IMG/VR virus record: IMGVR_UViG_3300037045_000356 | Location: 1 to 46,825 of that record | DNA from: a virus | Taxonomy: Duplodnaviria; Caudoviricetes | Strand: one strand, 5' to 3' | Length of the DNA stretch: 46,825 nucleotides | Shown here: positions 19,983-40,383 of the stretch, one piece after another | Position numbering within the stretch: position 1 is the first letter of the stretch | Layout of the letters: each line of letters begins with the position of its first letter | Position numbers and translations under genes: made by a program | The notes under the pieces: model-generated | Database searches by the model: none | Told to the model about the DNA's origin: nothing | Seen by the model: only the letters and a program-made list of their open reading frames with translations

Positions 19983-20621
19983 ATGTTAATAGATTTACTT
20001 GAAATTAGACCTGGGGCTGAAATCGAATATGAGTCTGAGATAGGTACCCACGGAACGCACAGCGGCCATAATAAAACTCGTAAAGGGAGGGTAATCCAGA
20101 TCACGGACAAGGTTATTTCAGTAAAAGGAAAGCTTTACCCGGATTCAATTCTTATCAATGACCTGGTATCAGGCCAGGCCAAAATAATCAGATTGAGGGG
20201 AGAGGATTTTGAGATGGCGGCAAAATTAGTTAATTGGGATGAAATGTGGCCGCTAGTAATGGCAGGAATTAATGCTGGAATGTCCAGTAGAGAAATAGCC
20301 GAACAACTAGGCATTGACAATAAAATTCTGCTTTCAAAACTAGACCGGGAGAAAAAGAAAGGGTTTATTGTTCCAAGAAAAACAGAGCAGACCCCACCCC
20401 CTGATCCGGGACAGGTTGGTAGCCAGGGACCGAATCAGGAGAGCACTGGGCCTGCTGTTGATAGTATACCAGAGACGGAGTTGCCTCGCGCTGATTGGCT
20501 TAATCGTCACTTAGTCGAAGAACTGCAGGAGCGCTGGGTAACAGAGACCATGCGCCAGAGCTTACCTAAGGAAGTTAAACTGGAAATCATTAAAATGCTA
20601 TTGGATATCGAAGTGGCGTAG
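19983..20621 (+). CDS. Hypothetical protein with HTH
   Basis: MSSREIAEQLGI HTH-like segment. Confidence 0.65.
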   Translation: MLIDLLEIRPGAEIEYESEIGTHGTHSGHNKTRKGRVIQITDKVISVKGKLYPDSILINDLVSGQAKIIRLRGEDFEMAAKLVNWDEMWPLVMAGINAGMSSREIAEQLGIDNKILLSKLDREKKKGFIVPRKTEQTPPPDPGQVGSQGPNQESTGPAVDSIPETELPRADWLNRHLVEELQERWVTETMRQSLPKEVKLEIIKMLLDIEVA

Positions 20622-20647
20622 TGCGCAGTCTGTTAAAACTGTGACGT
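20620..20647 (+). repeat. dif-like site 1: AGTGCGCAGTC-TGTTAA-AACTGTGACGT
   Basis: 11-6-11 quasi-palindrome, paired with site 2. Confidence 0.65.
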
Positions 20648-20657
20648 AATCGTATTG

Positions 20658-21491
20658 TTATGTCAATTCACGTTCTAAATAATATAAGTAAGCATAGTTG
20701 GAATTATCCGGTAAAGATATTAGTTTGGGTATATAATTTATTCCTATTCTTATAGCAGATGCAATACCTGTCAGGCCGATGGTCTCTTGCATAGGGATAT
20801 TTTGTGTAGATAAAAAAATAGGAAGTGCGATAGGTGCTAACTCTGAGATTAACTGAACTTTAACAGAACTCAAGAACCTTTTAATCTTTGATTCCATCAT
20901 AACCTTATGTAGAGTGGAAATATTATAGTCAATTTCGGCTATTATTTCGGCACTGGTGCTAAGTATATCTGTAGACATATTTAATTGCGAATAAAAATCA
21001 TCCATTAACTTCCTAAATTGCATTAGTTCATCTTTTCTTTTTACCTTAAATTCTAAAATATCATTAAGGGGGACGTCCGTTGCTGGAATCGGCAAACAAT
21101 CGCATAAATCAACTTCAATTGCAGTGGATATGGTACTAATGCTATCTGGGAATAAAAGTTTTGGTCCATTCTGTGCAATAGACCATTCTTCCCCAAGATT
21201 TTTTTTGTTAATCTTTAGGGCTTCCGCCTGTGCTACAGAAAATAATAAGTCTGGTGTGCCATGAAAGGGGAACTGTACTTTTGTCCTTTTTAGAATACCG
21301 GCATCTTCCAAAAAGTCTAAGTCTGGATTACCTTGAAAACGAATAAAACCGGAATCAGGAAAATCTAGTATGTCCCAATACAGCAAATAACGACGAAGCT
21401 CAACATTGTCAATGTTTGCAGAGAATGAAAATGAATTATCTGTAATATTTTTGGCAGGAGGTATTATTAAACCACGACTCAAAAAAGTCAC
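20658..21491 (-). CDS. AT-rich moron protein (DUF6236-like); probable start TTG 21482
   Basis: RGLII...LRRYLLYWD and VPLNDILEFKVKRKDEL motifs; antisense orientation with its own promoter. Confidence 0.7.
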   Translation of the reverse strand: MTFLSRGLIIPPAKNITDNSFSFSANIDNVELRRYLLYWDILDFPDSGFIRFQGNPDLDFLEDAGILKRTKVQFPFHGTPDLLFSVAQAEALKINKKNLGEEWSIAQNGPKLLFPDSISTISTAIEVDLCDCLPIPATDVPLNDILEFKVKRKDELMQFRKLMDDFYSQLNMSTDILSTSAEIIAEIDYNISTLHKVMMESKIKRFLSSVKVQLISELAPIALPIFLSTQNIPMQETIGLTGIASAIRIGINYIPKLISLPDNSNYAYLYYLERELT

Positions 21492-21560
21492 CTTCTTTTA
21501 TGTTTACATTACAACAATATTTTACCATGACGGTTTATTATTGCCCATATATTATCAATT

Positions 21561-21588
21561 AGTGCGCAGTTCAAAGATTAAGCGACGT
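21561..21588 (+). repeat. dif-like site 2: AGTGCGCAGTT-CAAAGA-TTAAGCGACGT
   Basis: Same arms and spacing as site 1. Confidence 0.65.
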
Positions 21589-21604
21589 AAAGGGAGGTTT
21601 TTAC

Positions 21605-21778
21605 GTGGATTGGAATAAAGCGGAACAGTATCTAAAGGATTGTGAAGCAGCTTATACAGAGATAGGACGTGCTGGGATGATTGCTATGATTTGCGTTATT
21701 AGTCCTTTGAGAGATAGGTTTAACTCAGGGGAAAGGACTCAAGAGCTTTATGAAGAAGTTATGGAGATCAAATTGTAG
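21605..21778 (+). CDS. Small hypothetical protein (57 aa)
   Basis: GGGAGG RBS, GTG start, MDWNKAEQYL... Confidence 0.6.
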   Translation: MDWNKAEQYLKDCEAAYTEIGRAGMIAMICVISPLRDRFNSGERTQELYEEVMEIKL

Positions 21779-21829
21779 AGTTTAAGGTGAACTAAGGCGG
21801 GGGAAGAGAACGATAGGAGGGGAAGGGTT

Positions 21830-22207
21830 ATGTTTTGTCCAGGTTGTAAGAAAGAAATGCAGCATATTTCAGAAGATGGTTTCTACAGGTGTCCGGAATG
21901 CAAAGGCACTTACTGGCCCAACGAACCCAAAATGGCATGTCCCGGATGCGGACGGGCAATGAAACATAATGCAATATTCGGGTTCTTCAAGTGTTCTAGC
22001 TGCGGATCTGAGTTCTGGCCACCGGATCCCAAGGATGAAGATTCGGATGACGATCAGAAGGAGGATGACGAATCAACCTGGAAGTGTAGTGGGAAGGTAT
22101 ATGGCCCAGCCACAATAAATGGCCCCATGAAAAGCAATAGCGGGCGCCGCCATGGAAAAAAGAAAAAGGCATCAAAGCTTGTCGGCGAACGATATTTATT
22201 GTATTGA
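21830..22207 (+). CDS. Double zinc-ribbon protein
   Basis: Two tandem CPGC...CxxC units, acidic and basic tails. Confidence 0.75.
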   Translation: MFCPGCKKEMQHISEDGFYRCPECKGTYWPNEPKMACPGCGRAMKHNAIFGFFKCSSCGSEFWPPDPKDEDSDDDQKEDDESTWKCSGKVYGPATINGPMKSNSGRRHGKKKKASKLVGERYLLY

Positions 22208-22224
22208 CAACACTCCAAAAAGTG

Positions 22225-22285
22225 GTAAAATCATAATTGCTACCCGTCACTATAATTAAGTGGCGGGTAGCAATTATGATTTTAC
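22225..22285. repeat. 27-bp-arm inverted repeat
   Basis: GTAAAATCATAATTGCTACCCGTCACT-7 nt-AGTGGCGGGTAGCAATTATGATTTTAC, one mismatch. Confidence 0.9.
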
Positions 22286-22515
22286 TAGGAGTTAAAAATA
22301 TTATCCTGACAGGTAGTTGAGAAGCCCTAAGAAACTTTCCAGTTAACTATTCATATCATATATCAAATATATAATCGGTGAAGAATCATGGTAATATATA
22401 GACTATAATGATTTAAAATTTGATATACTGTTTAGAGAGAGCAGGGGCTAGAATCACAGGCATCTAATCATAAATCGTCCTTATATATATCAAAGATATA
22501 AGGAGGTGTTTAATA

Positions 22516-22593
22516 ATGATAGTGCAAGTGACTGGAGGCGTTGGTGAAGTCAATGATGCTAATGTAGACGAAGCCTCACCTGTTTTAATCTAG
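22516..22593 (+). CDS. 25-aa peptide MIVQVTGGVGEVNDANVDEASPVLI
   Basis: TAAGGAGGTG RBS; terminator-like hairpin follows. Confidence 0.45.
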   Translation: MIVQVTGGVGEVNDANVDEASPVLI

Positions 22594-22608
22594 CCTCTTA
22601 AATGGGGC

Positions 22609-22645
22609 GACCCCAGCCTTGAGCAAGCTGGGGTCTTACCTTTTC
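22609..22645 (+). terminator. Hairpin terminator between convergent small genes
   Basis: GACCCCAGC...GCTGGGGTC then a T-rich tract. Confidence 0.6.
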
Positions 22646-22745
22646 TGTGTTCACCCGAGTAAGCATTAACCCACTCGGGCACGATGTTATTTGGAACTAC
22701 TATAGCCGGTAAAGGGAAGGGAATAATACTACCCAGGTTAACCCG

Positions 22746-22874
22746 CTAATCTTCTAAAGTAGTAAAAACGAAGAGAAAGACAACGGCGCAGAACAGGTAC
22801 CCGATTTGTACGAACTGAGCAATACTAATAAGAGCGAGAGCAAGGGTAAGTCGAGTCACATTTATCTTTATCAT
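22746..22874 (-). CDS. 42-aa hydrophobic peptide, candidate type I toxin
   Basis: AGGAGG RBS; MIKINVTRLTLALALISIAQFVQIGYLFCAVVFLFVFTTLED. Confidence 0.55.
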   Translation of the reverse strand: MIKINVTRLTLALALISIAQFVQIGYLFCAVVFLFVFTTLED

Positions 22875-22982
22875 AGACGCCTCCTGTCCCGAGCCCTTTC
22901 CGGTTAAGGTAATTATAAACAATTATCATATAATTTGGATATGTATATTTAAGGATCCTATTCTGGGGGCCCTTGTATAATG

Positions 22983-23021
22983 AACAAGAAAGCTGGTTCT
23001 AATGAGCCGGCTTTCTTGTTT
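22983..23021. terminator. Inverted repeat / terminator
   Basis: AACAAGAAAGCTGGTTC...GAGCCGGCTTTCTTGTT. Confidence 0.6.
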
Positions 23022-23033
23022 GGAGGCAGCAGC

Positions 23034-23135
23034 ATGATTATAATACTCTGGCCTAACTGCATCGTTCAGCATGGGGTCAAGGCGAGGACCAGGAGGTTTG
23101 ATCATAGGATAGCGAAGATGTTTCGGAAGTGGTAA
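23034..23135 (+). CDS. 33-aa basic peptide
   Basis: GGAGG RBS; MIIILWPNC...ARTRRFDHR. Confidence 0.4.
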   Translation: MIIILWPNCIVQHGVKARTRRFDHRIAKMFRKW

Positions 23136-23225
23136 ATAAGGAAAATGGTCGAAACAGGGGTAAACTTGACTAGAGGTAAATGTTACCTTTTGCCGAAATG
23201 TATTGGTGAAAGGAGATGACTATAT

Positions 23226-23477
23226 TTGAGCAAAAAAGAATCAATTATTAAAATACTGGATAGCCTGAATGAAAATTCTAAAGTTCCACCAGCAAATGAG
23301 TTAGGATTGGATCAAGAAGGATATGGTGAGATATTAGAAATAATGCAACAAGATAATCTTATCTTTGGTGCAAACATTTCTAGGGCAGGACAAGGTAACA
23401 AAGTACACATGGTATTTACAGACGGTACTAAAATTACAATCAGGGGTATTGATTACTTAGAGAAAAACAAAAGTTAA
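23226..23477 (+). CDS. YjcQ-like winged-helix protein
   Basis: KITIRGIDYLEKN C-terminal motif; own terminator at 23493-23512. Confidence 0.7.
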   Translation: MSKKESIIKILDSLNENSKVPPANELGLDQEGYGEILEIMQQDNLIFGANISRAGQGNKVHMVFTDGTKITIRGIDYLEKNKS

Positions 23478-23548
23478 TAAAAATAACTGATGAGCCTTAG
23501 GGCTCTTTTTTTATTGCATAAGCCCATCCGGGAGGTGGTGAAGATGTA

Positions 23549-24424
23549 GTGCCAAAGGCCAGAAGCGAAAACCGAGAGAAAGCATATAAGATCTTCCAAG
23601 AACACGGAGGTAAAATAACCAATCGAGCCATAGCCGATCAGCTAAGTATCAGTGAAAAGACAGTCGGCGGATGGAAATGCAAAGATAAATGGGAAGATAA
23701 ATTGAACGGAGTACTCCGAAAAAATAAACGGAGTACTCCGAAAGAAAAGAAAAAACGAGGTGCCCAGCCTGGCAGCAAAAACGCCCTGGGTAACAAGGGT
23801 GGCAACGGTGGCCCACCAGGTAATGACCATGCAGTAAAGCATGGTTTTTTTGCGCGCATCTTTCCGGATGACGAAGAGACCATGGCCATTGTGGATGAGA
23901 TCAATGGCAAAAGGGATAACACCCTGAACATCCTCTGGGAGAACATTGTCATCCAGTACACTGCCATAGCCCGAGCCCAGAAGTTAATGTTTGTAAAGGA
24001 TCAGGAGGATATCACTGAACACCTTAAAAAACGTAAGGTGCAGTCAGATGTTAAAAATAAAGGTACCAGGGATAAAGTTGACTACCAAGCAGTTGAAAAT
24101 TATCGCGAGGAAGAGTGGGAGTTTCAATTTGCTTGGGATAAGCATGCTAATTTCTTAAAGGCTCAGAGCCGAGCGATACAGACCTTGGAGCGTTTGATCG
24201 CTAGGTATGAGGAAATGTTGCTTAAGGACCTAGACACCGAAGAGCAAAAACTGCGTATCGATAAGATGAAATTAGAAATCGAGAAGATTAAGAACCCAGG
24301 CGATGTTGATATACAGACGTACCTTGATGCACTTAACCAGACTGCCCAAGATGTTTGGGCTGATGAAATAGAGGATATAGAACCGGCAAAGAACGGGGAT
24401 GGTGAAGATGAGAAACCCAACTAA
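23549..24424 (+). CDS. Terminase small subunit
   Basis: N-terminal HTH (WKCKDKW), GAQPGSKNA...NDHAVKHG motif; upstream of the large subunit. Confidence 0.9.
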   Translation: MPKARSENREKAYKIFQEHGGKITNRAIADQLSISEKTVGGWKCKDKWEDKLNGVLRKNKRSTPKEKKKRGAQPGSKNALGNKGGNGGPPGNDHAVKHGFFARIFPDDEETMAIVDEINGKRDNTLNILWENIVIQYTAIARAQKLMFVKDQEDITEHLKKRKVQSDVKNKGTRDKVDYQAVENYREEEWEFQFAWDKHANFLKAQSRAIQTLERLIARYEEMLLKDLDTEEQKLRIDKMKLEIEKIKNPGDVDIQTYLDALNQTAQDVWADEIEDIEPAKNGDGEDEKPN

Positions 24425-25703
24425 AGGGTTTAAATTTCAGCCGTTCTCAGTGAAACAGAAGAAACTCTTAACCTGGTGGATGCCATTCAGTCCATATAGA
24501 AACCACGACATGATAATTTGTGACGGCTCGGTACGGTCAGGGAAGACAGTGGCCATGATCGATGGATTTGTTACCTGGTCGCTGGCAACCTTCAAGAATG
24601 AAGATTTTATACTGGCCGGCAGGAGCATGGGAGCCCTAAAACGTAATGTGCTGAAACCTATGTTTCAGATACTCCTGGCTAAAGGGATCCCCTTCAACTA
24701 TAACCGCAGTGAAAACTATGTAGAGATTGGAACCAATACCTATTACTGCTTCGGCGCCAATAACGAGGCCAGCCAGGATGTACTTCAAGGCCTAACAGCT
24801 GCAGGTGCATATGCTGATGAGGGAGCGTTATTCCCCCAAAACTTTATAGAACAGATGATTGCTAGGTGCTCGGTTGAAGGTTCAAAAATATGGATGAACT
24901 GCAACCCTGAGAGTCCTTATCATTTTCTTAAGACTGATTATATTGATAAGGCAAAAGAAAAACGGATACTGCACCTGCATTTTACCCTGGATGATAATCT
25001 AGCGCTTTCTCCTAGAACTAAAGAACGGTACATGCGACTGTTCACCGGTCTCTGGTTTAAGCGTATGATTCTGGGCCTTTGGGTTCTGGCCGAGGGTGTT
25101 ATTTATGACATGTGGGATGATGCCATCCATGTTATTCAATGCCCTTCGGTAGGATACGATGAATATGGAGTGGCCGTTGATTATGCTACTGCTAGTGTCA
25201 TGACCTTTGGGCTTTATGGTGTCCGGTATGATAAGACGGGGAAAGACGAACATCGGGTTGACCTCATCAGGGAGTATTACTGGGATGCCAAAAAGAAAGG
25301 CAAGCAGAAAACTGATAGCGAGTTTGCCGAAGACTTCAAGCAGTTCCTTGGAATCGTTGTGCCGATAAATATCTACCTGGACCCTTCAGCTGCTAGCTTC
25401 AAGGCTGAACTGCGAAAACGAGGTTACAACCAGGTTAGAGATGCTGATAATGATGTAATAAATGGAATCCGCTTGGTAGCAACTTTCCTGAACGCCAAGC
25501 GGTTTTTTGTTGATCAGGGTTGCAAGGCAACTATTCAAGAATTTGGTTCTTATATTTGGGATGCAAAGGCTCAGGTCCGCGGTGAGGATAAGCCGGTCAA
25601 AGAAAACGATCATGCCATGGACCGGGATAGATATTTTATATATTCGAGGTTTGGTAAGATAACTGCCCGAGCTATGGGCGCAAAACCGGGAGGAGGATGG
25701 TGA
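24408..25703 (+). CDS. Terminase large subunit (PBSX family)
   Basis: GSVRSGKT Walker A, DE Walker B, NP coupling motif, DPSA and DHAMD nuclease motifs. Confidence 0.95.
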   Translation: MRNPTKGFKFQPFSVKQKKLLTWWMPFSPYRNHDMIICDGSVRSGKTVAMIDGFVTWSLATFKNEDFILAGRSMGALKRNVLKPMFQILLAKGIPFNYNRSENYVEIGTNTYYCFGANNEASQDVLQGLTAAGAYADEGALFPQNFIEQMIARCSVEGSKIWMNCNPESPYHFLKTDYIDKAKEKRILHLHFTLDDNLALSPRTKERYMRLFTGLWFKRMILGLWVLAEGVIYDMWDDAIHVIQCPSVGYDEYGVAVDYATASVMTFGLYGVRYDKTGKDEHRVDLIREYYWDAKKKGKQKTDSEFAEDFKQFLGIVVPINIYLDPSAASFKAELRKRGYNQVRDADNDVINGIRLVATFLNAKRFFVDQGCKATIQEFGSYIWDAKAQVRGEDKPVKENDHAMDRDRYFIYSRFGKITARAMGAKPGGGW

Positions 25704-27121
25704 TACACTTGGCAGAAGAAAAATGGGAAACGTGGCCCCCCGAAGGTCATCAAAAACGACTGGAAAACTACGCATTATATCGACTTTTGTTTGCGGGGAA
25801 GCATGATGAAGTCTACTCCCGGGTGCAGCAGTGGCTTGATAAAGAGCATGATAAAACTATAGTTTATATCGTTGCTAACTTTGCCGGACTCATTTCCAAG
25901 ATATGTGCTGATCTTCTTTTTGGAGAGCAAATCAAAGTAATTATTGGTGAGGAGGATAGCGAGGAGCGTAAGGCATTAAATAATATTGTTATCAACAATA
26001 AGCTTCACACTCGGTGTTATGAGATGTCTCTTGCAAGTAGCTTCCGTGGTGATGCTGTGTTTAAGGCGCGTTTTGGAAAGCCGGCTGCTTGGGACAAGGA
26101 AAAGGCAATTATAGAAGCAGTGCCACCGAGCTATTTCTTTCCTCATCTTAATGGGGATAACATTCAGGAGATGACCGGATGTACCTTGGCATGGGAAAAG
26201 AAATTAGGTGACAAGAAATATCTACGCAAAGAAATCCATACGCCTGGGTTAATAGAGAATGAGCTGTGGCAATTGGACGGCAGCAAGGTAAAGGGACGAG
26301 TAAAGCTTAGTACCTTGGGCGAATATGTTGGTCTTCCTGAATCCCAGGAAACCGGGTACCCAGGATTACTAGTTGAGCACGTTCCTAACTGGCGTTTAGA
26401 CGATATGTTCTGGGGTATTAGCGATTATGCAGATCTCGAATCCATGTTCGATGAGCTCAATAACCGGGTGAGTAAAATCAGCCGCATACTGGACAAGCAT
26501 AGTGATCCTAAACTAATTCTTCCACCGGGGATGATGAAATACGACGAAAGAAATAAGCGCTGGTATATAAACAAAGAGGATCTTCAAGTTGTTGAAGTGG
26601 ATCAGGCAGAGGTCGGTGATCTCCCCAGATATCTTGTTTGGGATGCGCAGTTAGAAGCTGCCTTTAAACAGATTGATAAACTCCTCGATCTGCTTATGAT
26701 GATGAGCGAAGTCTCCCCATCTGTTTTCGGCATGGATAAAAACGGTATAGCTGAAAGCGGTCGGGCCCTTAAGTTTAGATTACTGAGAACGCTGGCCAAG
26801 GTTAACCGCAAGAAGCTGTATTTTGATCAGGGATTAAAAAATATTCTCTATGCGGCCCAGGTGTTAGACGTTACTCATGGAAAGGCGAGCTACGAACCAC
26901 AGGTACCAAGAATTGAATGGGCAGATGGGTTGCCTGCTGATCCATTAGAACAGTCAGAGATCGAAGCCAACAGAATGGCAGCTGGTAATACCAGCCTTGA
27001 AAGCAGCGTTCGTAGGATGGATGGTCTGGATGATGAGGGTCTTAAGGAGGAACTGGATAGGATACAAAAAGAGAAACAGCAGGCTCCTAATAACCCAAGG
27101 GTCACGTTGCCAGGCCCATAG
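25697..27121 (+). CDS. Portal protein (SPP1-like)
   Basis: Position; GISDY and ESGRALK motifs. Confidence 0.9.
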   Translation: MVIHLAEEKWETWPPEGHQKRLENYALYRLLFAGKHDEVYSRVQQWLDKEHDKTIVYIVANFAGLISKICADLLFGEQIKVIIGEEDSEERKALNNIVINNKLHTRCYEMSLASSFRGDAVFKARFGKPAAWDKEKAIIEAVPPSYFFPHLNGDNIQEMTGCTLAWEKKLGDKKYLRKEIHTPGLIENELWQLDGSKVKGRVKLSTLGEYVGLPESQETGYPGLLVEHVPNWRLDDMFWGISDYADLESMFDELNNRVSKISRILDKHSDPKLILPPGMMKYDERNKRWYINKEDLQVVEVDQAEVGDLPRYLVWDAQLEAAFKQIDKLLDLLMMMSEVSPSVFGMDKNGIAESGRALKFRLLRTLAKVNRKKLYFDQGLKNILYAAQVLDVTHGKASYEPQVPRIEWADGLPADPLEQSEIEANRMAAGNTSLESSVRRMDGLDDEGLKEELDRIQKEKQQAPNNPRVTLPGP

Positions 27122-27133
27122 GAGGTAAACAAA

Positions 27134-27373
27134 ATGAAAAGCAATTGCTTGCTGGAAGCTGTAAAAGCCATAATAATAAATCCGAGACAAAACAAGATAT
27201 TCAAGAGGGGTTCATGGGCGTGTGTATTTAAACGTCAATGGCCTCATTTTTATTGGTATCACCGGCCACATGGCAAATATTATAGTTATCGTCAGAAAGA
27301 TGTAGCTCTTACATGGATGCAGCAATTATGGTACGAAGGGGACATAGTTGAGTTTACCTTGCACAACAAATAA
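27134..27373 (+). CDS. Hypothetical protein
   Basis: GGAGGT RBS; SNCLLEA...WPHFYW. Confidence 0.65.
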   Translation: MKSNCLLEAVKAIIINPRQNKIFKRGSWACVFKRQWPHFYWYHRPHGKYYSYRQKDVALTWMQQLWYEGDIVEFTLHNK

Positions 27374-27411
27374 AACAAAGAATAAACCGGCAACAGTGGA
27401 GGTGGTGCATA

Positions 27412-29019: not shown

Positions 29020-29030
29020 GAGGTGGTCAG

Positions 29031-29180: not shown

Positions 29181-29212
29181 TATAAGCAGTCAAAACAAGC
29201 ACTTGATTAAAA

Positions 29213-30662: not shown

Positions 30663-31388
30663 ATGGATATAACCTTGAAGACAACCACTTATGGTGGAGC
30701 CGTTAATATCCTTGATAGCGCTAATGTGCGCTATGTACGCGGGGGCGTAACACTTGATGCTGCACAGGTTGCCGCTGATGGAAACGGCATTAAGAAGCTT
30801 TTGGCTGGAACCTTTATTGGCGTAACTGGCGGCAAATATCGCAAGTATATTGCTGCTACTCTCGCTACCCTAGCTACCGGAGTGGTAGCCGATAATAACG
30901 CGATTACATGGACCGCAAAGCCAGCTTATGCCGGAACAGCTGGACACGCGATTAAGGTATCTTTGATTGACCCCGGCGGAAACAGTAAGCCCCTGGAAGT
31001 GCTTATTGTAAACAATGAAGTTCGTGTAATGCTGGCAACCAGTGGAGCAGGCGCAATCACATCTACTGCAGCCCAAGTCATTGCAGCGGTTAATACTGCG
31101 ATTGGCAATAGTTTTGTCTCTGCTGCCAGCACTGGGGTCTCTACCGGTGCTGCTGCTGTTGTGGCTGCTGCCGCCGCTGCTCTTGCCAATGGTGCAAACG
31201 CTAATATAGTACCGACTCTAATCTTGGGAGAGGATGTGGACTTCACCAGTTTTACTCAGTCAAGTGGACTTGCCTATGCCGATCGGGTTGTTACCGCCAT
31301 AGATCAAGCCCGTATTATAAGTGCCAGACTGCCGGCGGCGCCCGATGATTATGTCAAGGCCTCTATGCCTGGCATATCATTCGTTTAA
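30663..31388 (+). CDS. Head decoration protein with inserted Ala/Thr-rich domain
   Basis: GVTLD...KKLLAGT N-terminus and ARLP C-terminus; lies between scaffold and major capsid. Confidence 0.7.
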   Translation: MDITLKTTTYGGAVNILDSANVRYVRGGVTLDAAQVAADGNGIKKLLAGTFIGVTGGKYRKYIAATLATLATGVVADNNAITWTAKPAYAGTAGHAIKVSLIDPGGNSKPLEVLIVNNEVRVMLATSGAGAITSTAAQVIAAVNTAIGNSFVSAASTGVSTGAAAVVAAAAAALANGANANIVPTLILGEDVDFTSFTQSSGLAYADRVVTAIDQARIISARLPAAPDDYVKASMPGISFV

Positions 31389-31410
31389 TTGTAAAAGGAG
31401 GTAACCATAC

Positions 31411-32451: not shown

Positions 32452-32454
32452 AAG

Positions 32455-32488
32455 ATTAGGGGAGGAATCACCTCCCCTAATTATTCTT
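32455..32488 (+). terminator. Terminator after the major capsid gene
   Basis: ATTAGGGGAGG...CCTCCCCTAAT. Confidence 0.7.
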
Positions 32489-32510
32489 ACACTTTTTGTG
32501 AGGTGATTAT

Positions 32511-32858
32511 ATGGGGCTGGAACAAGCAAGTGCATATTTTGCGGCTCGAATTAATAGCGATATTTGGGATGCTGCAAGCGAAGCCAATAAAACAAAAGCC
32601 CTAGCCACAGCAGAAATACAGCTTGAATTATACAGAGACCGGGTAGATACAACCCGGTTTTATTATGCTATTCATGAGCAGGCAATATGGTTATTGCAGG
32701 GCGATGCACGTGCAGGACTTCAACAGGCTGGAGTCAAAAGCATGAGCTTGAGCAAGATGTCGGAGGATTATAATCTTCATGGTCGGGATCCGGCTATTGC
32801 TCCTCAAGCCTGGGCTTTTCTAAGAGGGCCTACATTAAAGGCTGGTGGTCTAAGATGA
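32511..32858 (+). CDS. Head-tail adaptor
   Basis: Position; ASAYF...W...KALATA pattern. Confidence 0.75.
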   Translation: MGLEQASAYFAARINSDIWDAASEANKTKALATAEIQLELYRDRVDTTRFYYAIHEQAIWLLQGDARAGLQQAGVKSMSLSKMSEDYNLHGRDPAIAPQAWAFLRGPTLKAGGLR

Positions 32859-33151
32859 TCAAGGATTATCTTAACCAGGACGCTACCTGGAGCAGCAAAA
32901 CAGGGGATAACGAATATGGGGAATCGGTCTTTGCGGATGCAGTTCTAATTAAGGTTCGTTGGGAACACCGACGCAGGTTTGTCCGAAATAGTCAGGGCAA
33001 GGAAGTTGTCAGTGAGTCCGAGGTTATCTGTATTGAGACGGTGCAGGTCGATGATGTGCTTACCTATTCTGGCCAGGATCATATTGTGATAACGGTTAGC
33101 GATGTGCCTGGACTTAACGGCGATATTTCACATCGAGAGGTGGCTGTCTAA
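32855..33151 (+). CDS. Head closure protein
   Basis: NEYGE...VRNSQGKEVVS pattern. Confidence 0.75.
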   Translation: MIKDYLNQDATWSSKTGDNEYGESVFADAVLIKVRWEHRRRFVRNSQGKEVVSESEVICIETVQVDDVLTYSGQDHIVITVSDVPGLNGDISHREVAV

Positions 33152-33501
33152 TGGCTGATATAAGGTGGTATGGTGACGAAATCGTAACGCTAATAAAAGA
33201 AGCTGCAATGTCTGGCATTCATGATGGAGCAGAGGGCATATTAACTGAAGCCTTAGATGAAGCACCACTATTGAGCGGTACATTACGCCGATCTGGAACC
33301 GTTACGGATGCACCAAGCGAAGAGGCAGTCTATATTGCCTTTAATACGCCATATGCTATGAGGCAACATGAAGATTTAACCTTGAGGCATCCTGGAGGGG
33401 GTAAAGCGAAATACCTCGAAGATCCATTTAATCGTAATAAAGACAAGGTTATCAGGTTGGCCAATGAACGGGTAGATGCTGCATTACAAAGAACGAGGTG
33501 A
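33151..33501 (+). CDS. Neck protein (HK97 gp10-like)
   Basis: GTLRRSG, TPYAMRQHE, KYLEDP. Confidence 0.8.
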   Translation: MADIRWYGDEIVTLIKEAAMSGIHDGAEGILTEALDEAPLLSGTLRRSGTVTDAPSEEAVYIAFNTPYAMRQHEDLTLRHPGGGKAKYLEDPFNRNKDKVIRLANERVDAALQRTR

Positions 33502-33505
33502 AATT

Positions 33506-33901
33506 ATGTCTACACTTATGATTGACGATATAGCCGTATACCTTGCCGCTCAAGGGTTAGGCATAATAGAAAAAAATCTATTCAAGGGTTCAATGCCAGA
33601 TAAGCCAGATAGCTGTATTGGAGTGTTTGAGTATTCAGGCTCTCCCCCAGATTTAGCACATGACGGAGCAGAAATAGAAAACCCTGGCCTTCAGATCAGG
33701 GTTAGGGATAAGAGCTATGCAACTGGCAGAACAAAGATTGAATCAATTATCAGAGCATTACATCCATCAACTAACATCACCATGGGAACAACTTTCTATC
33801 TTTCTATTACTGTTAATCAGTCACCGATCCCCTTGGGATCAGATCAAAATGGACGCCAAGAATGGAGCGTTAATTTCACCGTCAACAAAAATAGAAATTA
33901 G
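33506..33901 (+). CDS. Tail terminator / minor capsid protein
   Basis: PDKPD, PGLQIRVR, LGSDQNGR...SVNF. Confidence 0.8.
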   Translation: MSTLMIDDIAVYLAAQGLGIIEKNLFKGSMPDKPDSCIGVFEYSGSPPDLAHDGAEIENPGLQIRVRDKSYATGRTKIESIIRALHPSTNITMGTTFYLSITVNQSPIPLGSDQNGRQEWSVNFTVNKNRN

Positions 33902-33919
33902 GATAAGGAGGATAAACCA

Positions 33920-34627
33920 ATGCCTACAGCCGCAAAATCAGGTTTTGGGACAACCTTAACCAGGGCAGCAAATGTTATTGCTGAACTTACCAAGATCGGT
34001 AGTCCAAAGCTTTCACTAGATACTGAAGAGGTAACAAGTCATCAATCAGCAGACGGGTACAAAGAATTCATTGGTACTCTTTTAGATGCAGGGGATCTTG
34101 CAATTGAAGGTAATTATATACCGGGCGATACTTTGGGGCAGATAGGATTAGTTGCAGATATGAACGCAAAGACGTTGCAGGACTTTGTATTGACATTTCC
34201 TACTGCAGTTGCAACCACTTGGACATTTAAAGCCTATGTAACCTCGTTTGAAATAGGAGAAGCAGATACCAAAGGTGCTCTTACGTTTAAGGCCACATTG
34301 AAGATATCTGGCAAACCTGTACTAGGGATAACTCTTGCGGGGAACTTAACCGGATTAGTGGTGACTACCGGTACATTGATTCCGGCCTTTGCAGCAGGAA
34401 CCTATGATTATGTTGCTACTATCGCAACCGGGGTAGCCAGCGTTACTATTACCCCCACATGCGCAGCGGCTACCAGTATTGAGGTTAACGGCAATGTTGT
34501 AGCTACTGGAGTTCCTTCCAGTGCAATTGCATTAGGTGCAGCTGGGTCTATCACTGCAGCCACAGTAGTTGTTAATGAAACCGGTAAGATGCCCAAGACT
34601 TACAGTATTAAGCTAGCTAGAGCTTAG
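33920..34627 (+). CDS. Major tail tube protein with C-terminal cadherin/Ig-like domain
   Basis: EVTSH...EFIGTLLDAG tube motif; LIPAFAAGTYDY cadherin-like beta-sandwich. Confidence 0.85.
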   Translation: MPTAAKSGFGTTLTRAANVIAELTKIGSPKLSLDTEEVTSHQSADGYKEFIGTLLDAGDLAIEGNYIPGDTLGQIGLVADMNAKTLQDFVLTFPTAVATTWTFKAYVTSFEIGEADTKGALTFKATLKISGKPVLGITLAGNLTGLVVTTGTLIPAFAAGTYDYVATIATGVASVTITPTCAAATSIEVNGNVVATGVPSSAIALGAAGSITAATVVVNETGKMPKTYSIKLARA

Positions 34628-34637
34628 GAGGCGTCAT

Positions 34638-35012
34638 ATGAATTTAAGGGATAAAATACTGCTAGCAAAAGATATAGAGAGCGAACTGGTAGAAATACCT
34701 CAGTGGGATGTAATTATTGAGGTTAAAGGATTAAACGGTAAACAGAGATCGCTATTGTTGCAAGATACCATGGGAGATGCGGGGAAGCTAGATCTAGTTA
34801 AACTATATCCGCAACTGGTAGTTAGATCTTGCTTTGATCCTGATACCGGTGAGCGAATATTTACGGATGCTGATTGTGACGCTATTGCTGAAAAATCTGG
34901 GGCAGTACAAGAGATAATTGGTGCTGTAGCCATGCGTCTGTCGGGATTGGATGGCAAGACCGCAGAAAAAAACTCCGACGCCACCCCGAAAGGCGATTCT
35001 ATTTCGACCTAG
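34638..35012 (+). CDS. Tail assembly chaperone (G)
   Basis: Position; ends with a slippery sequence. Confidence 0.85.
   Translation: MNLRDKILLAKDIESELVEIPQWDVIIEVKGLNGKQRSLLLQDTMGDAGKLDLVKLYPQLVVRSCFDPDTGERIFTDADCDAIAEKSGAVQEIIGAVAMRLSGLDGKTAEKNSDATPKGDSIST
34967..34973 (+). other. -1 programmed frameshift site A AAA AAC
   Basis: The -1 frame reads LRRHPERRFYFDLASHLGG straight into MTVAELL of the 35030 ORF. Confidence 0.8.
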
Positions 35013-35029
35013 CAAGTCATCTCGGGGGA

Positions 35030-35368
35030 ATGACAGTAGCAGAATTATTAGAGCGCACTTCATCTGCTGAAATAGCTGAATGGGGTGCGTATTTTAATAT
35101 TGTAAACGAAGAAAAGCAGAAAAAACTTGAAGTGGAGCGGTATGAAAGATGGCAACATACTGCTTCATTGTGCGCAATAATCGCAAATGTAAACCGAGCT
35201 CCAGACACAGAACCTTATGTGATGCAGGATTTTATACCGGTACCATACCCGGGAAAAGAATCAGCACAGGTAGAGACAAAAGAGCAGACGTGGGAAGAAC
35301 AATTACAGATTATAGAAATACTTAATGCTGCTATGGGCGGCAGTGATACAAGGGGGGTGATGGCATAG
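35030..35368 (+). CDS. Tail assembly chaperone GT extension
   Basis: Reached by -1 frameshift; precedes the tape measure gene. Confidence 0.75.
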   Translation: MTVAELLERTSSAEIAEWGAYFNIVNEEKQKKLEVERYERWQHTASLCAIIANVNRAPDTEPYVMQDFIPVPYPGKESAQVETKEQTWEEQLQIIEILNAAMGGSDTRGVMA

Positions 35369-38076
35369 TTACTATTGGCGAACTAATTGTAAGAATTGGG
35401 GCTGATGCATCAGGCTTAGCCAGAGGTATAGAAAACTCGCAAAGAAGCTTGCAGAATATGGGAGAGAGAATGGAGCGCATTGGCAAGACGATGACAGCGG
35501 CCATTACCCTTCCCATCGCGGCAGCTGGCATAGCTGCATTTAAGTATGCATCGGATTTGAGTGAAAACATTAATAAAGCAGATGTTGCATTCAAAGAAAA
35601 CGCCAAAGAAGTTGAAGCTTGGAGCGGTACCACGCTGGAGAGCTTTGGCATAGCAAAAGTAACATCCCTTGATATGGCAGCTACTTTTGGAGACATGGCC
35701 ACCAGCATGGGTATTAACACAGCCAATGCAGCAACTATGAGTACATCGCTTGTCGGTTTAGCTGGCGACTTAGCTTCGTTTAAAAACATTAGAATTGATG
35801 TAGCTAATACAGCCCTAAATGGAGTTTTCACAGGGGAAACAGAATCCTTGAAACAGTTGGGAATAGTCATGACTCAGGCAAATTTAGATGAGTATGCCCT
35901 CAGTAAAGGCATTAAGATTAAGACTCAGGACATGAACCAGGCAAGCCAAGTGCAGTTACGGTATGCCTATATAATGGAGAAAACCACAAATGCACAGGGA
36001 GACTTTATCCGTACAGGTGGCGGGGCTGCTAACCAGATGAGGATATTTCAGGAGAGTATGAAAGAGCTTGGGGCAACAATAGGTACCAAGTTATTGCCAA
36101 TAATCACCCCGATAATAACAAAACTAAATCAATGGGTACAGGCTTTTGCTGGGTTAGATGAGCGATCACAAAAAATTATCCTGGTGGTTGCTGGTATAGC
36201 AGCGGCTATAGGTCCCGTTATACTTATTGTGGGGTCGCTTATCAGCGCAGTAAGTACAATTATAGGAGTATTCACAGCGGCATCCGCGGCTATAGCTGCA
36301 GCAGGAGGAGCCATTGCTATATTAACAGGGCCAATTGGAATAACAATTGCGGTTGTTGCAGGTCTAATTGCTGTCGGCGTTTTATTATACAAAAATTGGG
36401 ATATGGTAAAAATTAAGACACTGCAAGCATGGGGAGATATTAAGTCAGTTGTGCTGGGGAATGTATCTGCTTTAGTGGGTGGTATAGCAGTGTTGTTTGA
36501 TACTGTCGGACTTGATAATTATGCAGCTAAAGCCAGGGCGGCCCAAGCATCTCTTGCGGTATCGATTGACATGGAAAAAGAGCTACGCCACAGACGAGGC
36601 GTAGCAGAGTTATTCATAGGAACAAGTTCTTCTGTGTCAAAGGCTCCAGATATAGAGACCCCAAAAGCATTTGTACCCGACCTGTCAGGAATAACGGCTG
36701 CGGCAGATACTTCTAAAAAAGCTGCCGAGGATACCCGTACTGAGTGGGCAAAAACTGCTGACTTATTAGGCATTCAGTTGCAAGAAATAACCTCACAGTT
36801 TGAGGTTGCGGCCAATACTCAGAAAATGAGTGGTGATAAAGTAGCAGAATTTGCTGTGAAAACTGATGGATTAAATAAGCAAATGGAACTGCAGAAACAA
36901 ATTGTACAGGCAGTAAACAGTGATTATATTGTGGGCCTTAACAATGCCAAGTTAACCATTGAAGAAAAAGAAAAGCTACGGCTAAAAGTGGAACAGGAAC
37001 GCAAGGCCTTATCCGATCTGGAAGTTCAACAATATGATAACGTTCAAGCTCAAAAAGCTATGGCAAAGTCACTCTCAGACCTTTCTAGCAAAGTAGTTGA
37101 GGTTAGGGATAAGTTTAATAATGATATGGCTCAAGCTCTTGCTGACTATCAAAAGCAAGTTGCCACAGTTAATTCTAAACTCCTGACCGATGAGCAAAAT
37201 TTAACTCAAGCGTATGAAAGAACATTAAAGCAGCGAACAGATGCATTATCTAACTTTGTGGGTCTCTTTGATGCGGTGACTAGTAAATCTGTCACAGGTA
37301 ATCAGTTATTATCTAACCTGCAAGGACAGGTCGACACTTTTGGGCAATGGCAGGGGAACATTAATGCACTAGCGACAAAAGGGATCGATGAAGGATTATT
37401 GGCAGAACTTAGAGAGATGGGCCCGTCAGCGGCCTCAGAGATTGCAGCGCTTAATACATTAAGTGCTCCGGAACTAGCCCAATATGTTGCTCTTTGGCAA
37501 GAAAAATCAAACATGGCCAGGGCATCAGCTCAGGTAGAGTTGGAGAGTCAGAGGGTTGAAACCATAAATAAGATAGCTCAGCTCCGATCTGAGGCAGCAG
37601 TACAATTAGAAGCTTATAAGGTTGAATGGGAAAAGAAAAACGCTGAAATTAGGGCTAATACACAGAGGGAATTAGCTATAATTGCTAAAGAGTATGAAGA
37701 TATTACTGGTAAAAGCTTTTCTCAAGGTGCTTTATTGGTAAGTAACTTTGCAACCGGTATGGAATCTCAGTTTGATAGGTTACAATCAGCTATAAGTAAC
37801 ATGTATGCAATTGTTGGAGCTGGTGCTCCATCGGTTCAGGTATCTTCGGTTAGCAATGTCACAAGCATTCCTAAATTAGCATCAGGTACTAACAATGTTC
37901 CAGAAGATATGTTGGCCATAATTCACAAAGGAGAGGCGGTAGTACCGGCACCATATAATAAAGGTACAAGCGGTACCACAATAGGAGATATTTATGTTAC
38001 CGGCAGTAATGCAGATGAGATATGGGAAAAACTAAAACGGGAACTGACATCCAAAGGGGTGAAGATCAGTGCCTAG
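35365..38076 (+). CDS. Tape measure protein; probable ATA start at 35365
   Basis: TIGELIVRIGAD N-terminus upstream of the annotated TTG; helical/hydrophobic repeats; LASGT...IIHKGEAVVP C-terminus. Confidence 0.9.
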   Translation: MVTIGELIVRIGADASGLARGIENSQRSLQNMGERMERIGKTMTAAITLPIAAAGIAAFKYASDLSENINKADVAFKENAKEVEAWSGTTLESFGIAKVTSLDMAATFGDMATSMGINTANAATMSTSLVGLAGDLASFKNIRIDVANTALNGVFTGETESLKQLGIVMTQANLDEYALSKGIKIKTQDMNQASQVQLRYAYIMEKTTNAQGDFIRTGGGAANQMRIFQESMKELGATIGTKLLPIITPIITKLNQWVQAFAGLDERSQKIILVVAGIAAAIGPVILIVGSLISAVSTIIGVFTAASAAIAAAGGAIAILTGPIGITIAVVAGLIAVGVLLYKNWDMVKIKTLQAWGDIKSVVLGNVSALVGGIAVLFDTVGLDNYAAKARAAQASLAVSIDMEKELRHRRGVAELFIGTSSSVSKAPDIETPKAFVPDLSGITAAADTSKKAAEDTRTEWAKTADLLGIQLQEITSQFEVAANTQKMSGDKVAEFAVKTDGLNKQMELQKQIVQAVNSDYIVGLNNAKLTIEEKEKLRLKVEQERKALSDLEVQQYDNVQAQKAMAKSLSDLSSKVVEVRDKFNNDMAQALADYQKQVATVNSKLLTDEQNLTQAYERTLKQRTDALSNFVGLFDAVTSKSVTGNQLLSNLQGQVDTFGQWQGNINALATKGIDEGLLAELREMGPSAASEIAALNTLSAPELAQYVALWQEKSNMARASAQVELESQRVETINKIAQLRSEAAVQLEAYKVEWEKKNAEIRANTQRELAIIAKEYEDITGKSFSQGALLVSNFATGMESQFDRLQSAISNMYAIVGAGAPSVQVSSVSNVTSIPKLASGTNNVPEDMLAIIHKGEAVVPAPYNKGTSGTTIGDIYVTGSNADEIWEKLKRELTSKGVKISA

Positions 38077-39214
38077 AAAAATTACAATTGCAGGAGTCGA
38101 TAGAACCGCTGATGTGCTACTCAGCGGTTTTTCTATTACCCAGAACCTTACCTATCAAGAAGATACTTGTAGCTTAACTATCAAGTCAGGAACTAAACCC
38201 TCAACTGGTGACGAAATTGTTATCTTAGAAGGAACTACTAAATTATTTGGCGGTATTATTGACCAGGTAAAGGACCAGACAGCTAATAGCAATGTTCGCT
38301 ACCAATGTGAGGCCAGAGACTACACTTTTCATATGAATAAACGGCTGGTAGTAGAGTCTTACGAGTCAGGCCGGGAAGCTCTTTCGAGGGCGGATGAAAT
38401 ACTGGTGGATATAGTTACTCGGTATTGTACCGGATTTACAACTAAAAACGTGCAAACTACATCTCCTGAGGTTGATGCTATCTTGTTTGATTACATAGCC
38501 CCATCTGAATGTTTTAAGCAGCTTTGCGGTTATGTGGGATGGCAGTGGTATGTTGACTATGAGAGGGACATATGGTTTTTTAACCCGGCGGATCTAAATA
38601 AGCCTGCTCCCATGGTAATAAATGGTGCAGCCAGCTTTCGCAACTTTAATCATGATCTAGACATGCAGAATTTAAGGAACCGTGTCTATGTGAGGGGCGG
38701 CACCTACTTGTCGGACTTCGTTACATATGAATATAAAGCTGATGGGAAACAACGAGCCTGGATACTCCCCTATAAACCTCATAAATTGACTGTGAGTATT
38801 GGCGGGAGCGCTCCAATTACTCTCGGTATTGAAAACGTAGATGATGAGACAACGAAAACATGGATGATGAACTATGAGGAGAAGGTTGCTAGGTTGGCTT
38901 CCGGTGAGGCAGACATTGTTGCTGGCACCACTGTATCCTTTACTTTTAAATTTGATCTCGATGTAATTACTCTAGTAGATGATACTGAATCGCAAGCGGC
39001 TATCGCGGCTATTCAGGGTGGAGATGGAATTTACGAATATTCTCTGGTTGATGATACTCTGATCACGATCGAAGCAGCTGAGGCAGCTGGACAAGCCGAT
39101 CTGCGAGACAATGCTAATCCAATAGTAAAAGGTAGCTTTGATACTGAACATGTAATTAAGGAAACAACTTGGGCCGATCATAAAAAGATAACATGGGCAG
39201 ATATGAGGGGGTAG
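38069..39214 (+). CDS. Tail tip/hub protein, N-terminal part
   Basis: Follows the tape measure; LFGGII, WYVDYERDIWFF, NRVYVRGG. Confidence 0.75.
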   Translation: MPRKITIAGVDRTADVLLSGFSITQNLTYQEDTCSLTIKSGTKPSTGDEIVILEGTTKLFGGIIDQVKDQTANSNVRYQCEARDYTFHMNKRLVVESYESGREALSRADEILVDIVTRYCTGFTTKNVQTTSPEVDAILFDYIAPSECFKQLCGYVGWQWYVDYERDIWFFNPADLNKPAPMVINGAASFRNFNHDLDMQNLRNRVYVRGGTYLSDFVTYEYKADGKQRAWILPYKPHKLTVSIGGSAPITLGIENVDDETTKTWMMNYEEKVARLASGEADIVAGTTVSFTFKFDLDVITLVDDTESQAAIAAIQGGDGIYEYSLVDDTLITIEAAEAAGQADLRDNANPIVKGSFDTEHVIKETTWADHKKITWADMRG

Positions 39215-39218
39215 GACA

Positions 39219-39995
39219 GTGAGGTACAGTACGAATTACGGGCTATATTTACCTGATTATGTTGACGTGGCTGACATTGATAATATAAACGATAACATGG
39301 AGACTGTTGATACTTTACTAAAAGCATTAGCTGATGTTGATAGTGGATTGGCATCGACTGTTGCTACGCATTCAGCTAATACTACGACAGCACATGGGGC
39401 TGTATCTGCTGCTACTGCTAGTAAAATTATGATAAGGGACGCTGCTGGTCGGGCTAAGGTTGTGGGGGCTGCTGTAGCTAGTGATATTGCTATTTTGTCT
39501 GATGTGACCGGGAATGTTAATAATACCCCGACAGCGGGGGAGACTACCAAGGCTGCTAGTAGCAATTCAGTTGCTGTACATTTGGCTGATACTACGTCAG
39601 CACATGGGGCTGCAACAACAGCTACTTCTAATAAAATCGCTAGGCGGAATGCAGAAGGTAAATTATTGGCTATTAATAATCCTTATACCACGAATGGCGT
39701 ATGGGCAACTGATGAATATAAAATCGGTGCTAGTGTTGCAAGCGGGGGTACTTTGGTCAGCGATACGGCATTAAGTAATGGCCAATATTTATTATTTGTA
39801 GCATATCAAACAGGTGGCGATTCTGGCGATGTTGGTTTTTATAATCTAGGCAGATGGGGTACAACAGCTATTATTGACACTCTCGCCACCGCAACTAATA
39901 TAGCAATAAGTGTTAATGGTTCGTATAAAGTTGTGGCCACAAACAACACAGGAGGAGTCGCAACTATACAAATTATTTTAATAAAAATAATATAG
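39219..39995 (+). CDS. Tail fibre / receptor-binding protein
   Basis: TNYGLYLP...INDNMETVD fibre N-terminus; two H...AHG repeats. Confidence 0.75.
   Translation: MRYSTNYGLYLPDYVDVADIDNINDNMETVDTLLKALADVDSGLASTVATHSANTTTAHGAVSAATASKIMIRDAAGRAKVVGAAVASDIAILSDVTGNVNNTPTAGETTKAASSNSVAVHLADTTSAHGAATTATSNKIARRNAEGKLLAINNPYTTNGVWATDEYKIGASVASGGTLVSDTALSNGQYLLFVAYQTGGDSGDVGFYNLGRWGTTAIIDTLATATNIAISVNGSYKVVATNNTGGVATIQIILIKII
39363..39390 (+). repeat. dif-like site 3 (in-frame): GCTACGCATTC-AGCTAA-TACTACGACAG
   Basis: Matches the reverse complement of site 5 in both arms. Confidence 0.55.
39573..39600 (+). repeat. dif-like site 4 (in-frame): GCTGTACATTT-GGCTGA-TACTACGTCAG
   Basis: 210 bp after site 3; encodes AVHLADTTS. 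Confidence 0.5.
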
Positions 39996-40006
39996 GAGGT
40001 CAGAAC

Positions 40007-40231
40007 ATGCTTAAATATAGCATTGACAATGATTTTGTAACCAAATATAGCTTTGATGGTAAGCGAAAAACTCAGATAAAAATAGACAAAGAATCTGAGG
40101 AATATAAGGCTATAAAAATAGAAACCAATAATTTCACCGAAAATATGGATTTTCCCCCAACGGTAGAAGAAAAGTTACAATCAGATATTGATTATTTAGC
40201 AATTATGATGGGGGTGGATTTAAGTGTTTGA
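40007..40231 (+). CDS. Fibre-associated small protein
   Basis: PTVEEKLQSDIDYLAIMMGVDL C-terminus typical of genes preceding XkdX. Confidence 0.7.
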   Translation: MLKYSIDNDFVTKYSFDGKRKTQIKIDKESEEYKAIKIETNNFTENMDFPPTVEEKLQSDIDYLAIMMGVDLSV

Positions 40232-40367
40232 TAAGGTTAAAAATTATTATGATACTGGCTTATGGACACTACAAAGAGTCTGGAATGTCGTGGGAAAAAC
40301 AAATGGATTAACAGAGGCCGAATACCAGCAAATAACTGGTCTTGTCTATCCGGCTATGTCGCAGTAG
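40224..40367 (+). CDS. XkdX family protein (47 aa)
   Basis: FDKVKNYYDTGLW...LTEAEYQQITG. Confidence 0.85.
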   Translation: MFDKVKNYYDTGLWTLQRVWNVVGKTNGLTEAEYQQITGLVYPAMSQ

Positions 40368-40383
40368 ACAAATTATGCGCAGC
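40356..40383 (-). repeat. dif-like site 5 (inverted): GCTGCGCATAA-TTTGTC-TACTGCGACAT
   Basis: Left arm 10/11 identical to the E. coli dif XerC arm GGTGCGCATAA; overlaps the XkdX stop. Confidence 0.65.

Follow-up and report, generated by a model that had tools for sequence, protein, structure and literature searches.

Mosaicism among phage tail fibers is usually ascribed to homologous or illegitimate recombination together with selection. Tyrosine recombinases of the Xer/Cre type use a 6-bp spacer between alike 11-bp arms and leave flanks reassorted around matching spacers; in loxP/Cre and archaeal XerA dif, a single enzyme serves a symmetric site with two alike arms around a short spacer. We examined five 28-bp sites in a temperate tailed phage (IMG/VR record IMGVR_UViG_3300037045_000356, positions 1 to 46,825; this whole stretch of 46,825 nucleotides is called the window below), which a preliminary description had read as dif/Xer-like sites defining gene and domain cassettes. 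A DUF6236 gene lies between sites 1 and 2, a tail-fiber-like gene contains sites 3 and 4, and site 5 follows in the same operon. Like loxP and archaeal dif, they have two like arms and a short spacer; here there are many copies, and the enzyme is only a candidate. From the comparisons described below, the 28-mers are probably crossover points for an Xer/Cre-type tyrosine recombinase supplied from outside the prophage, which would swap modules between co-resident phages.

The dif modules of Acinetobacter have 28-bp 11-6-11 sites around a cargo, contain no recombinase, and are replaced in a spacer-matched manner, with replacement of a single module proceeding via a cointegrate when the spacers match on each side (PMC13141974). 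The window resembles them in site layout, in having a cargo, and in having no recombinase in the module, and the mode of replacement would be the same. On the Acinetobacter lwoffii plasmid pALWED1.3 (L523:221-2413), inverted pdif-type sites enclose a HEPN-domain gene together with a DUF6236 gene, and DUF6236 is therefore also a cargo of classical dif modules. In contrast to those modules, the sites described here have two alike arms and no XerD arm, are not copies of the host dif, and occur in phages and chromosomes of Bacillota, where they are also found in frame inside a structural gene. The Rin shufflon of Bifidobacterium prophages is similar in having one site in the receptor-binding gene and one after it, with a constant N terminus and a variable tip; as described there, Rin encodes its own invertase (a predicted tyrosine recombinase), stores spare tips as an inverted array, and uses an asymmetric 11-bp site, and Min, Gin, and Cin are covered by the same source (PMC6109161). 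Unlike these systems, the window has no invertase beside the fiber gene (only the integrase at 1-1164 among 65 open reading frames [ORFs]) and no silent inverted tips, the one fiber ORF being followed by two small genes on the same strand, and exchange, unlike that of Rin, would be between genomes. For the Cry genes of Bacillus thuringiensis, another Bacillota example, XerCD-driven domain swapping has been proposed at conserved inter-domain DNA; that case rests on a pangenome association, and the whole words "dif" and "spacer" are absent from the main text of the paper (PMC13730063), whereas a defined dyad and spacer classes are mapped here in phage fibers. In its working, the arrangement resembles a pdif module, and its role is that of a receptor-binding protein shufflon, but it lacks a defining feature of each. 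A literature search, with subscription papers largely outside its coverage, found no description of this fiber-site system.

The five sites and their family

All five 28-mers were present at the coordinates and on the strands first reported: site 1 at 20620..20647 (spacer TGTTAA), site 2 at 21561..21588 (CAAAGA), site 3 at 39363..39390 on the plus strand (AGCTAA), site 4 at 39573..39600 on the plus strand (GGCTGA, the common fiber spacer), and site 5 at 40356..40383 (GACAAA on the plus strand). Sites 1 and 5 overlap stop codons and sites 2 and 5 adjoin ribosome-binding sites, as had been claimed. The 11-6-11 layout with dyad symmetry was also borne out, the number of dyad pairs in sites 1 to 5 being 6, 4, 4, 2, and 5 of 11 (2.74 for random 28-mers). 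The assignment of a XerC arm and a XerD arm to each site needs correction; the arms are near-symmetric copies of one motif, with the consensus ACTGCGCATAA and, reversed, GTTTCGCAGTT in the family.

Our main profile was trained only on 26 sites of G585, a metagenome-assembled genome (MAG) of an uncultured Syntrophomonas. With this profile, site 5 scored 28.0 bits, site 2 21.3 (in reverse), site 3 16.3, site 1 11.5, and site 4 7.9, and the five sites ranked 1st, 2nd, 3rd, 4th, and 6th among distinct window positions; an unrelated match inside the SbcCD gene reached 8.7 bits. Three matches of at least 15 bits were observed in the window, compared with 0.08 per window in shuffles. G585 was found by a pattern from sites 1 and 2 and their relatives, which makes the ranks of these two sites partly circular; sites 3 to 5 had no part in that pattern. 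Site 4 alone is weak, since shuffles yield 1.5 matches of at least 8 bits per window. Leave-one-out profiles, applied post hoc, gave ranks of 4 to 5 among 93,596 positions. The profile scan proposed in the preliminary description, run with sites 1, 2, and 5, gave no useful signal (33 matches versus 26 in shuffled sequence, over 124 tail loci and the window). By their ranks under the independent G585 profile, the five 28-mers are one family of near-palindromic 11-6-11 sites, as originally suggested. Sites 1/2 and sites 3-4/5 form inverted pairs by profile, like the G585 pairs, with near-symmetry leaving the orientation uncertain, above all for site 1.

Relatives of these sites were found in phages and chromosomes. 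A phage locus (L125) with a homolog of the 57-aa gene that follows site 2 has site-1-kind and site-2-kind motifs at the gene ends, and site 1 has 17 of 19 bases in common with a site of this locus. The exact pattern of sites 1 and 2 matched 0 viral contigs; a looser version matched 96 stretches, mostly by chance, with 3 of 63 distinct contexts judged by eye as family members. A pattern from these motifs gave 21 matches in G585 (2 in the control), and a refined pattern gave 58 (again 2). The strict pattern matched in 34 of 107 family genomes, five of which had 16 to 25 matches (controls, ≤3). By pattern matching, the site family is present in Syntrophomonadaceae chromosomes and prophages. In G585, sites of two spacer classes bound repeated noncoding elements as inverted pairs, and low-GC genes adjoin sites with the spacers TGTTAA and CAAAGA, which are those of sites 1 and 2. 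The spacer class of site 2 also occurs in L166, L207, and L125, and site 5 has 22 of 25 bases in common with a G585 site. A site in G625 with the fiber spacer GGCAGA lies beside repeat-like DNA, upstream of a housekeeping-like gene, and by our reading is noncoding.

The G585 elements (L234-L250 and L430-L443) are GC-rich, hairpin-bearing noncoding sequences of ∼110 to 800 bp, bounded by inverted family sites and dispersed between housekeeping genes, for instance after xerD and rplT; no autonomous partner was found for them. RAYT was considered as a partner and rejected, with a site at 0 of the 20 Y1-transposase loci fetched (of 28 matches in the five site-rich genomes).

We compared the sites with the host chromosomal dif, as the preliminary description had proposed. 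Seven predicted dif sites of the host group end in TTATGT(A/T)AA(C/G)(T/C), all seven having the XerD arm (PMC3025954). Each of four Syntrophomonadaceae genomes has one site with the spacer TGAACA and that XerD arm, and we took these four single TGAACA sites as the host dif. The five window sites match the conserved XerD arm TTATGT(A/T)AA.T at 2 to 6 of 11 bases in either orientation, and 53 family entries match it at 4 to 7 of 11. The XerC-type arm agrees with the four host-family dif arms at 8 of 11 bases for sites 2 and 5 and at no more than 6 of 11 for sites 1, 3, and 4, and the reversed spacer of site 1 agrees with the host dif spacer at 5 of 6. Because the XerD arm is missing and both arms are alike, the five sites are, on this comparison, neither dif nor pdif, and they do not match the host dif. 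The suggestion of an integron-like system was not supported either: no integron feature was found in the window, and the window integrase, which lies 19 kb from site 1, scored 46 bits against TIGR02249 (cutoff, 265), below the mark for an integron integrase.

Silent positions and module junctions in fiber genes

Sites 3 and 4 lie in a 258-aa tail-fiber-like ORF (39219..39995, plus strand), whose same-position homologs match tail-fiber PHROGs; its own sequence does not. Both are in the same frame, encoding ATHSANTTT and AVHLADTTS, inside a 68-nt coding repeat in which site 4 is the weaker copy. We initially read them as a mere protein repeat and dropped this reading after the G585-profile ranks and the tests of silent positions. 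For the latter, 160 further loci were added to the earlier ones, giving 134 distinct fiber proteins, and motifs were chosen by protein pattern only (xxH[LIVKQSM]A[DEN]xxx), giving 25 distinct DNA copies. The His codon was CAT in all 25 (15.5 expected). The third base of codon 8, which specifies Ala, Thr, or Glu, was G in 22 of 24 motifs (4.3 expected), and that of codon 7 was T in 21 of 24 (10.5 expected); these third bases stay fixed while the amino acid varies among Ala, Thr, Glu, and Met. The fixed silent positions are inside the 28-mer, and the codons flanking it are little biased, bar one directly before the site. The signal was also seen with one motif per flank cluster (8 of 9 versus 1.5) and without the discovery loci (6 of 7 versus 1.2).

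Synonymous recoding gave the same picture. The real score was reached by 0 of 5,000 recodings for site 3 and by 0.5% for site 4. Fiber ORFs contained 19 profile matches of at least 12 bits, all in one frame, compared with 1.6 after recoding, and the fiber motifs had 5.16 dyad pairs of 11 compared with 3.39 when recoded (maximum, 4.20 in 2,000 recodings). Judged by codon choice, the motif is maintained as DNA inside fiber genes. Among cultured phages, none matched across the motif.

High-identity alignments between fiber genes had 89 internal ends, of which 26 fell inside a site (8.2 expected if uniform) and 63 away from the counted sites. In 19 motif pairs, one 45-nt flank was common and the other was not; identity ended at the spacer edge in 15 of these. 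The spacers of all 19 pairs were identical at 5 or 6 of 6 bases, four of the six being forced by the protein pattern, and GGC(A/T)GA was the spacer in 20 of the 25 motifs. One upstream block was joined to three downstream blocks, and one downstream block was joined to several upstream ones. These alignments show fiber modules of relatives rejoined at the motif; the junctions fall in it, and cutting by a recombinase there does not follow from the alignment-end test. The earlier expectation that mosaic breakpoints would coincide with the sites held for the in-fiber sites; for sites 1 and 2, neither an empty site nor a close relative was found. The unequal spacers also fit exchange between genomes better than excision, as had been proposed. 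A second, more degenerate His junction (STH-S/V) was noticed at codons 43 to 48 of the fiber genes of L021, L015, L017, and L094; it also ends alignments and is outside the counted pattern.

Site 5 overlaps the stop of an XkdX gene (PF09693, E = 1.8e-13; 40224..40367, plus strand) and forms the right edge of a likely exchangeable tip module. XkdX is preceded by a 74-aa ORF (40007..40231, plus strand) in the position of an XkdW-like chaperone, a label taken from gene order, with no family match, and GGAAGGAGG starts 3 bp past the site. Sites in the equivalent position were found in L043, L329, L283, L007, and the prophage of G623. Eight fiber loci have an in-frame site and sufficient sequence beyond it; in 7 of them, the top-scoring downstream 28-mer lay within 25 bp of a small-ORF stop. 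The small ORFs ending at downstream sites belong to several families. Among 78 loci without an in-frame site, 3 scored at least 9, one of them (L043) at a small-ORF stop. The G623 prophage, which has a different tail, carries an in-frame site (25.3 bits, spacer GGCAGA) and, across the stop codon of the 70-aa gene that comes next, a second site (15.3 bits, GACTAA) in the register of site 5; the region contains 3 matches of at least 10 bits in 14 kb. By position, then, fiber operons repeatedly have a second site where their last small gene stops.

A crossover model and its alternatives

If the 28-mers are crossover points, one crossover would take place at the in-fiber site, with the spacer GGC(A/T)GA, and the other at the post-XkdX site, with a spacer that is mostly GAC..A. 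Together, the two would replace the fiber tip and the following small genes or chaperones, in frame. By the same route, sites 1 and 2 would allow exchange of the DUF6236 moron, as proposed for single pdif modules via a cointegrate, and the unlike spacers on the two sides would prevent simple deletion. The enzyme would act in trans unless the phage integrase (1..1164, minus strand) acts on the sites, for which it is a candidate only; as had been stated, it is the only recombinase in the window, being the sole recombinase-family match, and the sole tyrosine recombinase, among the 65 ORFs scanned.

The symmetric arms suit a single enzyme. Given site-specific recombination, the candidates are host XerC/XerD and a prophage-borne XerA-like protein (NF040815), to each of which we assign about one third of the likelihood. 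Of the tyrosine recombinase clusters, only XerD was seen throughout the five site-rich genomes. Another, by our reading XerC, is in G625, G630, and G641, with the second-best match of G585 unclustered. G630, G634, and G641 also have a second recombinase cluster in common, of which neither G585 nor G625 yielded a member. NF040815 has members in 8 of the 107 genomes at the cutoff used, including two distant ones. The G623 prophage and the complete phage G680, both with a site pair, encode it, and in a G585 prophage it lies 850 bp from a site. Neither the window nor three other fiber-site phage records (two incomplete) yielded a copy.

A broader reading, which we put forward tentatively and doubt slightly more than we believe, is that of an "open shufflon" of Clostridia-type phages. 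A symmetric, non-dif tyrosine-recombinase site would lie in frame in the fiber gene (H-x-A-D/E) and be repeated after XkdX, and an enzyme acting in trans would allow unrelated phages with different tail types to trade tips and chaperones; the family would also move morons and bound chromosomal noncoding repeats.

Several observations weigh against the crossover model. The role as crossover points is predicted from sequence, and the arms do not match the host dif. In the fiber genes, motifs are rare (25 in 134 proteins), the strict fiber pattern matched 0 of 301 sampled phylum genomes, and the codon directly before the site is itself biased (T in 19 of 25 versus 6.4 expected). The 19 pairs and 89 ends are nonindependent events, and the Ala-Asp/Glu codons of the protein pattern partly dictate the breaks at spacer offsets 12 and 17. 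Only 3 of the 8 downstream sites score at least 9, and two of the eight loci are discovery loci. Over the 124 tail loci, total matches were not above the null (14 versus 12.3), with 5 of the 6 best matches sitting in tail-gene inserts, and L027, which has the same split tail gene as the window, has no site (best score, 5.8). Such sites are lacking at homologs of ORF 19983 (2 loci, both distant, where another gene follows directly) and of DUF6236 (5 loci scored in genomes and 5 judged by eye in phages). Finally, of 9 NF040815 loci, 1 is within 1.5 kb of a site, and NF040815 was not found in 4 of the 5 site-rich genomes.

Fiber mosaicism may need no dedicated recombinase. The in-fiber motif could be a structural H-x-A-D/E junction at which annealing proteins recombine through microhomology, in-frame products being selected and the DNA homogenized. 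The coding repeat around sites 3 and 4 is compatible with this, as are the SbcCD-like and Holliday-resolvase genes of the window and an ORF with weak annealing-protein leads; most alignment ends (63 of 89) are outside the counted sites, and spacer-edge breaks are partly built into the motif. We nevertheless consider this account unlikely, since it leaves unexplained why dyad pairing exceeds that of synonymous recodings, why third bases stay fixed despite Ala/Thr/Glu/Met changes, and why the motif also occurs at gene boundaries and in intergenic DNA. Improbable too, in our judgment, are degenerate pdif sites used by host XerC/XerD exactly as in Acinetobacter, with one arm per protein. The shared 11-6-11 layout, an arm up to 8 of 11 identical to host XerC arms, the XerD cluster common to the site-rich genomes, the G585 elements bounded by inverted pairs of two spacer classes, and the near match of the reversed site 1 spacer to that of the host dif would all fit such use. 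However, the XerD arm is matched poorly both in the window and over the family entries, a single changed conserved XerD base has been judged likely to inactivate a pdif site (PMC13141974), and XerC and XerD are also present in genomes without strict sites. Canonical XerC/XerD use is partly contained in the crossover model; its strict form, without a XerD arm, is unlikely.

The 28-mer could instead be bound by a dimeric regulator or a nucleoid protein, which would be compatible with its dyad symmetry and with the dozens of copies that each chromosome has between genes, close to where these start and end. Such a protein would not account for conserved spacer classes, for flanks reassorted around the spacers in fiber genes, or for copies at both ends of repeated noncoding elements, and we regard this explanation as very unlikely. 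That the five sites are a chance collection is hardly credible, even though the profile of sites 1, 2, and 5 did little better than shuffled tail loci and site 4 alone is in the chance range: the G585-profile ranks, silent-position constraint, family genome counts, recoding tests, and G623 pair largely refute it for sites 2, 3, and 5. Should the crossover model be correct, fiber mosaicism would be a programmed exchange between phages through a 28-bp site kept at silent positions and a postchaperone partner, and the common fiber motif would be partly a DNA signal. The logic of dif modules would extend to a site other than the host dif and to protein domains, with a possible modular site for altering phage host range in anaerobic Bacillota.

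Cargo, split tail gene, and other features of the window

Site 1 marks the left edge of the DUF6236 module and includes part of the TAG stop codon of ORF 19983-20621. The DUF6236 gene (PF19749; 20658..21491, minus strand) is a moron-like cargo in a module with a GC content of 0.337, compared with 0.437 for the window, and its predicted fold (pLDDT, 76) had no PDB match at an E value of ≤0.001. Site 2 is followed by the ribosome-binding site AAAGGGAGG and then the 57-aa gene (21605..21778, plus strand). Of the five homolog loci of this gene, only L125 has site-like motifs on either side of it, and the gene was not found in 401 genomes. Single-protein locus scans (tail gene and DUF6236) and a blastn search of 19000-24400 against phages found nothing. 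Sites 1 and 2 flank this low-GC gene and may mobilize it, in line with the proposed swapping of morons; no empty slot was found. Two public sequencing runs yielded short contigs for the tail but nothing at sites 1 and 2; one joint (39491/40048, opposite strands, in one contig) and two loose ends (39468 and 40963) were all away from the sites and are uninformative. Past the 57-aa gene, a 27-bp inverted repeat (22225-22285; 96% complementary, 7-nt loop) lies directly 3' of a zinc-finger ORF (21830-22207), and a relative, L009, has a similar hairpin 3' of its homolog of that ORF.

The ORFs at 38069..39214 and 40403..40771 (both plus strand) are, by homology, halves of one tail protein, inferred to be hub-like, that is encoded by a single gene of ∼470 aa in most relatives; the intact homolog has a weak tail PHROG match. 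The C-terminal part has its own start and is 59% identical to residues 361 to 471 of the intact homolog. The gene is split by a nested fiber operon of 1,287 bp (39149..40435, plus strand), the edges of which differ from the sites; the operon ends 52 bp beyond site 5, which is not its edge. Over 124 loci the tail gene was intact in 102, had an insert at the same codon in 8, and had no C-terminal half in view in 14, and the same split was found in at least 15 of 120 homologous proteins, the window copy included. One tail-gene codon is an insertion hotspot, as seen in the window (38069-40771) and in L011, L021, L026, L027, L030, L043, L059, and L109. Its inserts are either in-frame domains of 81 to 1,014 bp or whole fiber operons of 1.3 to 2.5 kb that split the gene. 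Where an operon splits it, the first half has a W-repeat tail and the second a new start; the sites leave the route of arrival unexplained.

The gene order of the window is integrase, immunity, replication, packaging, head, tail, and lysis. Named relatives of the tail protein are mostly in Syntrophomonas, Pelotomaculum, Desulfotomaculum, and Heliobacterium genomes, and the host is therefore likely one of these Bacillota. Rfam gave no match in the window. A single 1,275-aa ORF (6679-10506) combines SbcD-like and SbcC-like domains, and the adjoining ORF 5756-6724 has weak Sak/ERF/Rad52 annealing-protein leads, under the bar of the tool. Past the lysis genes, a low-GC DUF6731 gene and a membrane-protein-like partner (45031-46486) form a second moron, without sites, and a gene for a papain-like C1 peptidase (42600-43631) lies between the tail and lysis modules.

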